The notes under the pieces were generated by a model. It saw only the letters and a list, made by a program, of their open reading frames with translations. It made no database searches and was not told where the DNA came from. Shown piece after piece: positions 720-62,133 of a stretch of DNA of 64,000 nucleotides. Each line of letters starts with the position of its first letter. Position 1 is the first letter of the stretch. The DNA is from Eledone cirrhosa (Eukaryota), in assembly GCA_964016885.1 (NCBI GenBank), contig OZ024742.1:321470001-321534000 (forward strand), given 5' to 3'. Made by a program: the position numbers and the translations under genes.

Positions 720-890
720 AGGAAAATGTTTAACCCCGACGACAGACCTTAAGCCGTTTCGACGACTATTTCTGGACCAGCTCTGCCGTCGGGGTTAAAC
801 ATTTTCCTATTACCCACTCTACTACCCTAAGTATTGAGTACTCTGGTGCGTTTTGGTCCATCTGGTTCCTTAGCAAACTTTCTTCGTTAT
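720..890 (+). mobile_element. Short (TA)n-embedded repeat family A, fold-back copy
   Basis: 'gctctgccgtcggggttaaacattttcctattacccactctactaccctaagtattgagtactctggtgcg' recurs at 3459-3652, 37826-37936(-), 45174-45278 and 61957-62133; 720-749 is the reverse complement of 779-809. Confidence 0.85.
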
Positions 891-1460
891 ATATATATAT
901 ATATATATATATATATATATACATATGGAGATATATATATATATATATGTATGTGTGTGTGTGTGCATGTATGTGTATATATATAAATTCCGAAAGAGGG
1001 GGGGGGGGGGGCACATATGACTAAGACAATGGAAAAAGAATGGAAAAAACGACAGTCCCATCTCCTCACTGTTGCTCGACCCTGTGGAATATTGGCGAAT
1101 GTTCCTTCTTTCGGTAGCAATATTAATTAATGGCGATATGGTTCCTTGCCCCGCGTTCTATGCTTCCTCCATTCTGGACATAAGCCAAATTAACCTAGCT
1201 TTTCAAATCTCTTGATAGGGGCCCAATTCAAGTAGTGTAAACTGGAGCCAGCTGAGTATGGGACTTGCTTCACACTATTTCCAGAGGAACATTAGATAAC
1301 GTCCGGTGTAAAATAAGGCTTCTTTAAACCCTGAAAAATGACATTATTAGGATAACCGTTCTTCAAACACACACACACACACACACACACACACACACAC
1401 ACACACACACACACACACATATATATATATATATATATATATATATATATATATATATAT

Positions 1461-1928
1461 ATGTTTGTTTGTGTTTGTGTTTGTTTGTGTGTATATCAGC
1501 CATTGCTTGTTGCACTAAGCCTGGCTCATTCGAGACGACTTAAGCTTGATCTTTGTATTTACATAAATATAAATATCGTTTCATTAAAATATATAACTAT
1601 TCATTTAACTAGTAACAACACAATTATATATATATATATATATATGTGTGTATGTGTGTGTGTGTGTGCGTGTTTGTATATATATATATATATATATACA
1701 AACACACACACACACACACACACACACACATATATATATATATATAATTGTGTTGTTACTAGTTAAATGAATAGTTATATATTTTAATGAAATGATATTT
1801 ATATTTATGTAAATACAAAGATCAAGCTTAAGTCGTCTCGAATGAGCCAGGCTTAGTGCAACAAGCAATGGCTGATATACACACAAACAAACACAAACAC
1901 AAACACACACACAAACAAACACACACAC
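1461..1928. repeat. Inverted duplication, arms about 1461-1630 and 1742-1928
   Basis: 'cagccattgcttgttgcactaagcctggctcattcgagacgacttaagcttgatc...' is mirrored; arms differ by at least one substitution (atcgtttc vs atcatttc). Confidence 0.95.
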
Positions 1929-1984
1929 ATATATATATATATATATATATATATATATATATATATATATATATATATATATAT

Positions 1985-2340
1985 ATTAGAAAGTGAGGTT
2001 TTTTTACAAAATGAAAAATAACCGAGGTGTCCTACACGAGTGAAAATATAAAGAAAAAAAGATGAAATCGAAAATGCAACTGGAGTCTTATTTTTTTTTT
2101 AAATATATATATTTATTTGGTTCCTTTACCGGTTTCGCAGTTCTTCTGCTTTTCAAAAGTAGAGTTGAGATGGAGGGTCTGTGGTTTTTCTCACATGAGA
2201 AAAACCACAGACCCTCCTTCTCAATTCTACTTTTGAAAAGCAGAACTGCGAAACCGGTAAAGGAACCAAATAAATATATATATTTAAAAAAAAAATAAGA
2301 CTCCAGTTGCATTTTCGATTTCATCTTTTTTTCTTTATAT
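1985..2340. mobile_element. Family B element (about 212 bp) as a head-to-head palindrome: full copy on - (1985-2195) plus truncated copy on + (2196-2340)
   Basis: Both arms match the + strand copies at 45324-45535 and 9737-9875; each arm contains the hammerhead-like motif. Confidence 0.9.
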
Positions 2341-3193
2341 ATATATATGTGTGTGTGTGAGTGTGTGTGTGTGTGTGTGTGTGTGTGTGTGTGTGTGTGT
2401 GTGTGTGTGTGTGTGTCTGAAGAACGGTTATCTCAATAATGTCATTTTTCAGGGTTTAAAGAAACCTTATTCTATATATATATATATATATATATATATA
2501 TGCATATATATATATATACATACATACATATATATACACACACATATATATATATATATGTATATGTATATATATACATACATATATATATATATATATA
2601 CATACATACATATACATACACACACACATACATACAAATACACACACACACACACATATATATATATATATATATACATGCATACATACACACATATATA
2701 TATATATATATATATATATATATATATATATATATATATATATATATATATATATATATACATGCATGCATGTATATTTATGTATAGTTCACACTATACA
2801 CATGTATATGTTAAACTAACTTGCCGTCAAAACAAAATGGAGAACCAGACATCAAAACATAATACAATTGACAGCATGTTTAAACTTTGGTATATATTAT
2901 ATATAAACGCTGGTAAGTATTATTTTCCTATCTCAAATACAGCTTTATTTATCTGCGATATGTATCTCTGTCATATATTTATATATATATGTGTATATGT
3001 ATGTATATATGTATGTATGCATTTGTATATATATATATATATATATATTTATATATATATATATATACTTTCTGCTGAAGGCATTCGTTGGCTTGGCTGC
3101 TGATCGAACTTCGAATATGCTGTACTATTGTATATATATATATATATATATATATTTTTTTTTTGTGTGTCCGTCAACCCTTATTATTATATA

Positions 3194-3383
3194 GCGGTGG
3201 ATTGGCAGTATCGGTAGAGGGTCGGACGCCATGCTTTCCAGCATAGTTACGTCCCTTTACGATCTGAGTTCAAATCCCGCCGAGGTTGACTTTGCCTTTC
3301 ATCCTTACGGGGTCGATAAAATAAAGTACCAGTAATGCACTGGATAATTGCTGGCCTTGTTCCTAAAGTAGAAACAATTATTA
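3194..3383 (+). mobile_element. tRNA-derived SINE (Octopus-type)
   Basis: A-box-like 'tggcagtatcggtag', B-box 'gagttcaaatcc', core 'ttgcctttcatccttacggggtcgataaaataaagtaccag', (ATT)n tail. Confidence 0.9.
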
Positions 3384-3458
3384 TATATATATTTATATGT
3401 ATATATATATATATATATATATATATATATATATATGAATATATATATATTATATATA

Positions 3459-59708: not shown

Positions 59709-59903
59709 CGAGGGTCGGCTGAAAAATTCCTAGGTTGACCAAAATACTCTCATGGAATGACCAAATGAGGTTTATTTTTCAACAGGGTCCCTCAAAAGAA
59801 ACAATGCAGTTATTAATAAGGAGAGTTGAAATTAAAGCATGCAACATTTCACAGCTTCATCACTCCTTCATAGACAATATATGAACTTTTCAGCCAACTC
59901 TCG
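59709..59903. mobile_element. Mariner-like MITE
   Basis: ta|cgagggtcggctgaaaaattc ... gaacttttcagccaactctcg|ta. Confidence 0.85.
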
Positions 59904-60259
59904 TACCTTATTTACTTACACCCTTACACTCACTTCACACATATGCATACATTCGCATGCTTGTTTGTGCACTCATACTCTGACCCAAACACTTACACGT
60001 GTACACAACCACGCGTACGCATTCACATATTTCTTCATCCACACGCACAAAAGCATTAGAGCGGAGGAGGAAATAGTTTGCGGTATTTGGTGAAGCTATC
60101 TGTTCTGAGTTCAAATCTGTTCGTCGTCAACTTTGACTTATATCTTTCTGTGGTCGATAAAACACAGTACCAGTTCAGGAATGGTGGATCGACGGAATTG
60201 TAAAAGTATTGGACGTGGTGACTTGGAAGTGTGTGTGTGTGGGGGGGGGGGGGGTGCTA

Positions 60260-60625
60260 CTGCTAGACCCTTCTTCTTTCTGAGAGAGTTGTGAGAGCAG
60301 AGTCCTCCTACACTCCCTCCAGCGGGTCCTGTCAGAATCTACTGTTCCCACCTGATCCGACTGGATCCCCAAGCGTGACCATCCAACCAAGCTCATGGAT
60401 GTTATCCAACCATCCTACTCAGAGTCTACCCTTGGGTCTCTTGCCGGTTGGTTTTGCCCGTAAAATCTGTCCAGTGATTCTTTTCTGAAACATTATAAGC
60501 ACATGCCCATAGTATCAGAGCTGTGATCTCTCAATTCGCAAAAATAGTGGCTCTACCTGGAGAGACTCTCTGATCTCAGAATTAAGCACTTTATCGAGTA
60601 ACGTTACTCCAAAGACCCTCTCTTC
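60260..60625 (-). mobile_element. RTE LINE 3' fragment
   Basis: RIERSQL*YYGHV..KPTGKRPKGR..WLDNI..DRTRWRE. Confidence 0.8.
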
Positions 60626-61554
60626 CATCAAAATATTAAGTAATCACCTTTGTTAAGTTATGTGCCAAAAACCAGCTAATAATGTGAAAGCTAATATTTG
60701 TTTATCTTTAAAATTCTTATATATACATACATATACAATTATATATATATAAATATATAAATACATGTATATATATATATATAGAGAGAGAGAGAGAGAG
60801 AGAGAGAGAGAGAGAGAGAGAGAGAGAGAGAGAGAGGGGGAGAGAGGGAGAGAGAGAGAGAGAGAGAGAGAGAGAGGGAGAGAGAGAGAGAGAGAGAGAG
60901 AGAGAGAGAGAGGGAGAGAGAGATAGAGATATCGCGATTTATATCGAGAGGCGACCACTGTCAAAAAAGGTACTCAATACGTTAGTATAGGTACGTTCGT
61001 TTTATTATAGAAATGACCTCTATATGACTAGAACTGTTTCGTTCGTAAGAAATCATTAGGTATATATATATATATATATATATATATATACCTACACACA
61101 CCATCGCCTATCCAGCATGACCAATGTTTTACACGAAATATACAACTGCATTAATATAATAGATACATTGATTATTATTTCTATTTATTTTAAGAGAGAT
61201 TAAATATTGGTAAGGAAATGGTTCAACGGTCATTCCATATCGGAAACACTTGGAAGTTGGGCTCTGGCTTGATGTCATAACTGACGTCATAGGGACCTAT
61301 TACCTTCCTTCCTTTATTTATTTATTTCGGGAGTGCCTTCCCTTCATCAGCAATGTAAATACAAAGTTGATACAGTTTTTAACAGTTTGCCTAGCAACAG
61401 ACATACAAACAGTACTTCACATTTATAAATGAATGTGTGCATGTATGTATGTAAGCGTATATATGCATATATGTTTGTATGCATGTATGTATATATGCAT
61501 GTATATATATATATATATATATATATATATATATAATTATATATATATATTATT

Positions 61555-61920
61555 GGAAAATAATGAAATTTCATTTCTCACTCTTAGTACGGCTGATACT
61601 TAAATATAAGTATGTATACGTACATACATATATGTATACAGACGTACAGTAGTATGTATATACATACATGCACACACAAATATATGTACGTATGGGTTTA
61701 CCAAACATTTATTATAATGCTCGGTTTGTTTGTCACTGTTGAACAAAAGGGCAACGATGGTTGCCGAACACTGTACGGCTAATAATTCGGGCTGTTTGTT
61801 TACAAACAAACCGAGGATTATAATAAATGTTCGGTAAACCCATACGTACATATATATGTGTGTGCATGTATGTATGTATATACATACTACTGTACGTCTG
61901 TATAGATGTATGTATGTATA
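61555..61920. mobile_element. Family D copy with inverted duplication (about 61593-61732 / 61794-61915)
   Basis: Same rearranged architecture as 9888-10385. Confidence 0.85.
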
Positions 61921-61956
61921 CATAGTTATATTTATATATACAGATATATATATATA

Positions 61957-62133
61957 TAGGAAAAAGTATGACCCCGACGGCAGAGCTCAAGCCGTTTCGA
62001 CGGCTATTTCTGGAAACGGCTTGAGCTCTGCCGTCGGGGTCATACTTTTCCTATTTCCCACTCTATTACCCTAAGTATTGAGTACTCTGGTGCGTTATGG
62101 TCCATCTGGTTCCTTACCACAATTCCTTTGTTA
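61957..62133 (+). mobile_element. Family A fold-back copy
   Basis: 61957-61998 mirrors about 62013-62054. Confidence 0.9.

Follow-up and report, generated by a model that had tools for sequence, protein, structure and literature searches.

Short hammerhead-bearing repeats in the (TA)n arrays of Eledone cirrhosa: probable ends of Penelope-like elements inserted as head-to-head pairs

Here we describe the short repeats lying in and against the (TA)n microsatellites of a 64,000-nucleotide (nt) stretch of the 3.0-Gb genome of Eledone cirrhosa (the window; assembly GCA_964016885.1, contig OZ024742.1, positions 321,470,001 to 321,534,000, indexed as G000:C3:321470001-321534000), 9.7% of which is pure (TA)n of at least 12 nt. 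These stubs are probably the hammerhead-and-tail ends of Penelope-like elements (PLEs) inserted in (TA)n, and their palindromes were probably formed by priming from both cut DNA ends. The repeats, the hammerhead folds and the inverted duplications are real and abundant. The families, new Hydra- and Neptune-type PLEs and two retrozyme-like units, are mostly of a known kind, and the palindromes correspond to the 'inverted copy plus tail' known from Penelope elements, in a very short and abundant form.

Families A, B, C, D and G were mapped by us with masked self-BLAST and reading of the window, the initial annotation of the stretch having given no coordinates per family. The background sample consisted of the window and six 200-kb blocks chosen blind to their content, 1.264 Mb in total; one block (G000:C5:60000001-60200000), with 48% GC and zero TA arrays, is unlike every other and was retained for locus counts and left out of array counts. 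Arm pairs were pooled from the blocks and from loci found by genome search. Element P, a longer PLE of the window, was left out of the block arm counts, its reference having no tail.

Each family has two 3' end points, an internal one (site 1) and the end of a 60-100-nt tail. The head-to-head pairs (twin insertions) join an arm ending at site 1 to an arm carrying the tail in 66 of 73 pairs of B, 22 of 35 of D, 7 of 12 of A and 18 of 38 of G, the remaining pairs being mostly incomplete matches and G being blurred by its tandem units. Two site-1 arms were met once in B and once in D; two tail arms were never met in A, B or D. The arms need not be nested: the no-tail arm reaches at least 20 nt further 5' in 8 of the 73 B pairs (the reverse in 1), and at 6300-6366, 45173-45278 and 57826-58207 the arms share no or almost no sequence. 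Both arms come from one family, mostly from one subfamily, and diverge by 3-6%. Minority letters shared by the arms are four to six times commoner within than between loci (B and D); for B the values are 0.033 per site within loci and 0.008 between them. Turn points vary from copy to copy, as the initial annotation had stated, and its estimate of about 19 inverted duplications agrees with about 20 head-to-head or tail-to-tail ones readable in the window; masked self-BLAST gave 25 local inverted pairs.

Head-to-head pairs were found at 23 of 47 B loci, 8 of 24 D loci, 8 of 25 A loci and 12 of 29 G loci of the background sample, against 5 of 157 for C (Fisher p from 6e-13 to 3e-5), and TA directly follows the 3' end in 53 of 76 B arms versus 9 of 238 for C. 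Family C has a B-box-like motif and resembles a short interspersed element (SINE), for which reason it was used as a control outside the system; both (TA)n flanks and inverted pairs, the comparison proposed with the initial annotation, are far commoner in B. There C had been counted as a member of the system, a place which it loses by having no hammerhead fold, few TA-flanked ends and few palindromes. Its clusters or inverted pairs at 49624-50290 and 28109-28963 were probably among the inverted duplications counted at that time. That several unlike short families adjoin (TA)n arrays is borne out by self-BLAST and by reading.

A direct long copy of B served as reference for the raw reads of three further samples and for one contig set; the reads are amplified reduced-representation short reads, not unamplified long reads. 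Opposite-strand joints were found in them at L151:8692-8698, where the assembly has them too; about 2000 reads of each run leave B into (TA)n at site 1, and depth climbs more than tenfold at the predicted transcript start (+1) of B.

A, B and D are not independent non-autonomous elements, each being joined through a 3' untranslated region (UTR) of 1-5 kb to Penelope-like open reading frames (ORFs) in genome copies. At two independent loci (L151 and one in the C1 block) B lies about 0.95 kb 3' of an endonuclease (EN) domain 46% identical to that of P, on the same strand; from the B-linked sequence EN was recovered, and a reverse transcriptase (RT) with its DKT motif was not. D lies 2.3 and 4.2 kb 3' of a Hydra-type ORF 51% identical to P (L152, L166). 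Long copies of A, found with its upstream part as the genome query, have a Neptune-type EN about 1.2 kb 5' of A in 8 of 20 cases, with 2 more inverted. The initial annotation had proposed pseudo-long terminal repeat (pLTR) pieces or retrozyme-like passengers moved by (TA)n-targeting Penelope-like enzymes, with adjacency to Penelope-like ORFs as a check. The ORF links favour the pLTR part of that proposal; non-autonomy falls for A, B and D, and likeness to retrozymes is kept for G.

ORFs of the P type (L157-L160) encode 702-713 amino acids (aa) in a single frame, RT followed by a C-terminal GIY-YIG EN as read by eye, and the D-linked piece in L166 has 498 aa. DKT and RWR, the latter agreeing with the RWK signature, were seen in L158-L160, in a region missing from the D-linked piece. 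Both P and D-linked proteins show by eye a CxCx5C linker and CxxC and CxH around conserved E and N, with no CCHH, and both P and D insert into (TA)n, in accordance with the diagnosis of the Hydra clade in section 11 of Craig et al. 2021 (PMC8557442), in its available text. On motifs and likeness of EN or ORF, B, D and P are assigned to Hydra-type PLEs. The A-linked EN ORFs (L290, L291, L299, L300) have a Cx4CxxC linker and C/C/H/H candidates by eye, by which A reads as Neptune-type with a CCHH-type C-terminal EN. A Pfam search with six proteins gave no RT or GIY-YIG match. In P and in a second family a hammerhead-site 1-tail block stands directly before the ORF start.

The 5' ends of the short arms are also ordered. 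A TATA-like box lies at -30 in D, A and P and at -31 in B, with CCAAT at -63 to -91 in three families, and the starts cluster, 50 of 76 for B in one 20-nt bin and 23 of 32 for D in two adjacent bins. Since in four families the short arms begin about 30 nt behind TATA, they are likely run-off cDNAs from the transcript 5' end. At 16 of 22 B breaks and 8 of 10 D breaks the letter before +1 is a non-native G, which is suggestive of a copied cap; the available text of PMC4859970 gives an untemplated G as the copied-cap signature in LINE-1.

Just behind site 1 the tail carries a putative RNA hairpin, composed of RCUC, an upper stem-loop, a two-base bulge and GAGY. A search filtered for pairing found 96 such hairpins in 1.064 Mb, 72 of them at most 110 nt from a TA array, against 3, 7 and 12 in shuffled sequences. 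Without the filter there are 33 multi-copy families, some of which are antisense reads of one hairpin or chance, and among the purine-first cases the outer pair is A-U in 10, G-C in 9, G-U in 4 and A-C in 1; the next two pairs are formed in about two thirds of families, with several pair types. Covariation of the bulged hairpin is seen in many families. Site 1 lies 6-8 nt upstream of it by script in five families with few copies each, and 4-8 nt by eye elsewhere. A matching fold is present in three published Hydra records, from coral and sea cucumber, in the available supplement of PMC8557442, and no mention of the hairpin was found in the available text of that paper or in the literature searched, with most subscription papers outside the search.

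The mechanism that we consider probable would run as follows. A Pol II promoter in the pLTR would start a capped RNA at or inside the hammerhead. The element's endonuclease would cut a TA array, and reverse transcription would be primed by both DNA ends, from the internal site 1 for one of them and from the tail end for the other, while an RT dimer would copy from both sites on one uncleaved RNA up to the RNA 5' end. In Hydra-type families the dimer may be placed by the conserved bulged hairpin 4-8 nt behind site 1. The two run-off cDNAs would then join head to head at short homologies, and the stubs would correspond to run-off copies of the 5' pLTR in the transcript of the element itself. G and the 457-nt unit described below likely use the same machinery; their variable 5' ends are what is expected of multimeric or circular RNA. 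A stricter version can be put forward tentatively, as possible but rather doubtful: that every insertion is a cDNA pair made by obligate asymmetric twin priming on one capped RNA, by an RT dimer with an active site on each side of the tail, seated by a clade-wide bulged hairpin conserved from corals to this genome. Run-off at the RNA 5' end would then account for hammerhead-bearing stubs numbering on the order of 100,000, and retrozymes would be carried as well.

Several points weigh against these proposals. Transcript start and cap are inferred from DNA; the +1 of A and P was chosen partly by TATA spacing, arm starts spread over about +1 to +9, and the TATA box of B is non-canonical. After removal of cases explained by the partner arm, the non-native G at -1 is left in 5 of 9 for B (p 0.14) and 5 of 8 for D (p 0.09), with a further 1 of 1. 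The hairpin is absent from G and not clear in A, and among the collected loci no attached ORF and no autonomous partner of G was found. About half of the loci have no second arm by BLAST, some having stubs shorter than 20 nt. The variants shared by arms could also be due to a pair of RNAs transcribed from one source locus, or to gene conversion at a later time, and the loci obtained by search are skewed to query-like copies.

Among the alternatives, the use of two separate RNAs, one per subunit of an asymmetric RT dimer, with short arms as 5' truncations at a stable RNA structure, survives best and is still unlikely. Two templates would yield overlapping arms most easily, the arms of a few B pairs have several differences and no shared variant, and P and D are fused at 25408 as one no-tail and one tail arm. 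Mixed-family junctions number only 2 against 76 within families, however, and both mixed ones involve C. Arms stop at the helix II loop in B, at the 5' base of helix I in D and about 35 nt before the fold in A, positions which fit no common structure and are all equidistant from the TATA-like box.

Somewhat less probable still is an inverted arm made by self-priming or fold-back, on an antisense transcript or on the first cDNA, as proposed for rotifer Penelope elements in the Discussion of PMC3846280 (available text). The arms do share subfamily variants, and junctions often fall at self-complementary sites. Self-priming requires nested arms, though, and we reject the fold-back origin given in the initial annotation because the non-nested B pairs and the pairs with almost nothing in common do not fit this requirement; the exact stop of the second arm at site 1 and its junction to (TA)n would also be left unexplained. 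Few arms of B begin near the cleavage site, and 5' ends defined by hammerhead cleavage were rejected as well.

It is very improbable that the short families stand on their own as non-autonomous retrozymes or SINE-like elements with a fixed palindromic unit. In reads the short copies are more than tenfold more numerous than the upstream UTR, and as ORF-less tandem units G and the 457-nt unit do suit the description; A, B and D, on the other hand, run upstream into UTR and ORF, turn points vary by copy, and short B, D and A form no tandem arrays beyond isolated pairs. Assembly or amplification artefacts, to which the 99% identical tail-to-tail arms with flanks at 1491-1880 and 7745-8516 and the mere two genome matches of 1491-1622 might point, have a negligible chance in view of fixed end points, arm divergence and the matching joints in raw reads of three other samples.

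The following features were delimited in the window (strand in brackets where assigned):
718..890, B twin insertion; the inverted arm stops at site 1, the direct arm has the tail; tail hairpin at about 816-839
1986..2339, A twin insertion (Neptune-type element, 3' end); the arm with tail on minus, the one without on plus; U3-A8 hammerheads at 2156 (-) and 2232 (+)
3458..3653, B twin insertion; tail arm from the predicted +1 (about 3514), with a non-native G before it
6151..6280 (+), a further 3' stub of Hydra type, which ends at (TA)n and has a tail hairpin
6300..6366, minimal B-type twin insertion; unshared arms, the last part of the tail and 22 nt before site 1
8624..8747 (-), single D arm with tail, flanked by TA arrays on both sides
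9741..9881 (+), A arm ending at site 1
9889..10402, twin insertion of G (retrozyme-like); degenerate hammerhead
10806..11283, 457-nt tandem unit with hammerhead (11127 +), twin insertion; a piece of the unit is like the start of a Hydra ORF
15352..15582, twin insertion of family J (hammerhead), tail hairpin present
23035..25434 (-), element P, Hydra-type PLE, ending at site 1; 3' UTR, variant hammerhead at 23104, EN at 23882-24322, RT pieces
24988..25434 (+), inverted 5' part of P
25408..25521 (+), tailed D arm with an inverted stub of 13 nt, joined to inverted P sequence
28709..28835, diverged B-type twin insertion
30249..30575, family H twin insertion; tail arm minus, no-tail arm plus
37829..37936 (-), single B arm
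37977..38113 (+), D arm from the predicted +1; complete fold at 37984; tail hairpin at about 38050-38068
38180..38289, diverged B-type twin insertion
38464..38903, a further family with hammerhead (cluster 3), twin insertion
45173..45278, B twin insertion; no overlap between the arms
45325..45534 (+), tailed A arm carrying a hammerhead fold (45363)
45581..45770 (-), K, a relative of A
57136..57326 (-), hammerhead singleton (fold at 57296), a stub that ends at (TA)n
57714..57783 (+), P tail ending at (TA)n
57826..58207, G twin insertion; tail-only arm and arm ending at site 1; intact fold at 57961
58249..58371, P micro twin insertion
59121..59203, diverged D-type inverted pair
60954..61060 (-), diverged D-type arm
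61557..61934, G twin insertion
61956..62134, B twin insertion

The window copy of P is broken by stops and frame changes. At 24988-25521 a 3-nt homology links the D tail arm to the inverted part of P, and the other end of P is a no-tail arm; this fusion is possibly one event with two RNAs, or a later insertion with deletion. In family J (15352-15582, and position 22674 of the C3 block) helix III of the hammerhead is itself a short TA palindrome.

Hammerheads were searched for with a relaxed descriptor, in which the helix II closing pair and U3-A8 cores were allowed; it gave 75 folds in the background sample, against 9, 2 and 4 in three shuffles, and a strict descriptor gave zero matches. Over all loci collected there were 286 folds in 46 clusters, 24 of them with at least two members. 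Outside the window there are 70 folds per 1.2 Mb, which extrapolates to roughly 1-2 x 10^5 predicted hammerheads per genome. In the window, folds look intact in G (57961), D (37984), A (2156, 2232, 45363) and two singletons (11127, 57296). The initial annotation had assigned minimal hammerheads to B, D and G, and this stands for G: only G and A are near-minimal, with helix III of 4 bp in D and 5 bp in B, and the window copies of B begin within helix II and have no 5' half of the core, a complete B fold (U3-A8 core, long helix II, 5-bp helix III) being seen only in longer genome copies. The U3-A8 fold of A had been absent from its list. Minimal folds in PLEs, with helix III absent or a tiny palindrome, the U3-A8 variant and opposite-strand pairs are described in the available text of PMC4209133. 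D has a canonical core in 61 of 91 matches. As to P, the Penelope-like RT/GIY-YIG element ending in (TA)n at 23035-25434 was correctly recognised, and its own 3' hammerhead proved to be altered at the fourth position of the core (CAGAAGA, 42 of 44 copies). Folding z-scores are modest, from -2.1 to +0.7. The proposed Rfam scan reported no hammerhead in the window at gathering score, the only match being tRNA-like; at an E-value threshold the best 150 of 547 matches were microsatellite-driven miRNA models. Two candidate singletons were rejected for want of an intact core, 7875-7978, a tail remnant, and 1491-1622, a unique flank.

G has a period of 430 nt (L163) and also occurs as a four-unit array at a TA-expanded period of 540-580 nt; behind its tail comes the next unit in 19 of 44 cases and (TA)n in another 19. 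The family with the fold at 11127 is a 457-nt tandem unit, found as a three-unit array, and its end resembles a Hydra ORF start. According to the available text of PMC7229834, non-LTR retrozymes are tandem 150-450-bp units, each with a type I hammerhead and no ORF. By their sequences G and the 457-nt unit would fit this definition, and A, B and D show no ORF-independent tandem organisation. At L163:4714-5144 and in relatives of G an octamer-like ATGCAAAT is kept upstream of the hammerhead. It presumably recalls the snRNA-type promoters of newt satellite 2.

Of 1423 TA arrays of at least 20 nt, 190 adjoin a recognised element end, where 19 would be expected at random, a tenfold excess. Arrays adjoining elements have a median of 43 nt versus 39 nt for the others (p 0.10, with a partial element library). 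TA arrays are insertion targets, and the suggested feeding of array growth by insertion is not supported. Of the TA arrays with complex flanks, 6 of 279 are inverted-repeat centres, compared with 0 of 57 arrays of other kinds and 1 of 2096 sites taken at random; several of these centres are head-to-head or tail-to-tail element ends, and general fold-back at TA arrays was set aside as at most a minor class. The duplications at 1491-1880 and 7745-8516 are tail-to-tail, with about 99% identical unique arms including microsatellite flanks, and are not twin insertions; both genome matches of 1491-1622 come from the 1491-1880 duplication. At 37405-37480 and 47084-47150 perfect 29-31-nt arms flank a TA array, one of them like two element heads with a (TA)n-filled junction, and such junctions are a possible route for the birth of new arrays.

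Three further features of the window were noted. At 40694-45124 (+) there is a 1476-codon open frame of poly-Asn, Ser, Gly, Pro, His and Asp runs, which may be either a real low-complexity exon or a triplet-repeat field. At 51033-52868 (-) a 491-codon frame and an upstream piece resemble a CRE/HERO-type non-LTR retrotransposon with a restriction-like endonuclease; a Pfam search with this protein gave no match. The tRNA-like Rfam match, 56544-56606, stands between 65-nt inverted repeats (56451-56664).

The system can be compared with known ones, in each case from the available portions of the published texts. With the Hydra-clade PLEs (PMC8557442) it shares the C-terminal GIY-YIG, DKT, RW(K/R), CxCx5C, CxxC and CxH motifs, a predicted 3' hammerhead, the (TA)n target, the inverted truncated copy and the one-sided tail; Hydra-1_Obim is listed in the supplement with (TA)n preference and hammerhead. 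In contrast to the elements described there, many families are present here, with 3' UTRs up to about 4.5 kb, 60-100-nt tails and mostly stubs of 55-200 nt, and neither the promoter geometry nor the conserved tail hairpin of the present families is mentioned; six motifs taken from these families gave no match in the supplement. An octopus repeat annotation (PMC13282606) has no mention of such stubs in its available text, and repeat pipelines may file them as SINEs or miniature inverted-repeat transposable elements. The axolotl, with 120,000 hammerheads (PMC7229834), is comparable to the number extrapolated here, in a much smaller genome.

Penelope pLTR insertions (Arkhipova et al. 2013, PMC3846280) have in common with ours the head-to-head inverted pLTR, the tail on one arm and a TATA box with initiator; palindromes are read there as self-priming on an antisense template, whereas the non-nested arms found here favour two primed cDNAs. 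For the anole Poseidon element PAc in vitro (Frangieh et al. 2024, PMC11167929), both strands are cut and extended, two internal RT start sites bound the tail, the template is uncleaved RNA and a dimer is predicted. The two start sites bounding the tail, the cutting and extension of both strands, the AT-rich target and the uncleaved RNA agree with what is seen or proposed for the present system, as does the hammerhead-site 1-tail block before the ORF, seen here in P and a second family. PAc showed no strand difference in start site and inverted copies were left unaddressed, while here each insertion pairs one site with the other. LINE-1 twin priming (PMC4859970) shares with the proposed mechanism the cDNA primed at the second end, giving a 5' inversion, and the untemplated cap G; it differs in that the second start is here fixed and element-encoded and that arms can overlap.

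G and the 457-nt unit are like the non-LTR retrozymes (Cervera and de la Pena 2020, PMC7229834; Li et al. 2026, 10.64898/2026.07.22.740005) in that they are arranged in tandem, lack an ORF, measure about 430-460 nt and have a type I hammerhead; they differ by the Penelope signature, namely two end sites, an inverted arm and a TA target. This signature would give direct genomic evidence for the mobiliser proposed in those two papers, G being direct sequence evidence for retrozyme insertion by Penelope machinery. The origin of inverted copies, tails and microsatellite bias of PLEs is named as open in PMC8557442. To these known systems the many tiny natural products described here add a sharp and testable rule for inverted copies, one arm per start site and both ending near the promoter-defined +1, a candidate RNA signal in the tail hairpin, which can be mutated in the existing in vitro system, and genomic evidence of retrozyme insertion in the Penelope way.

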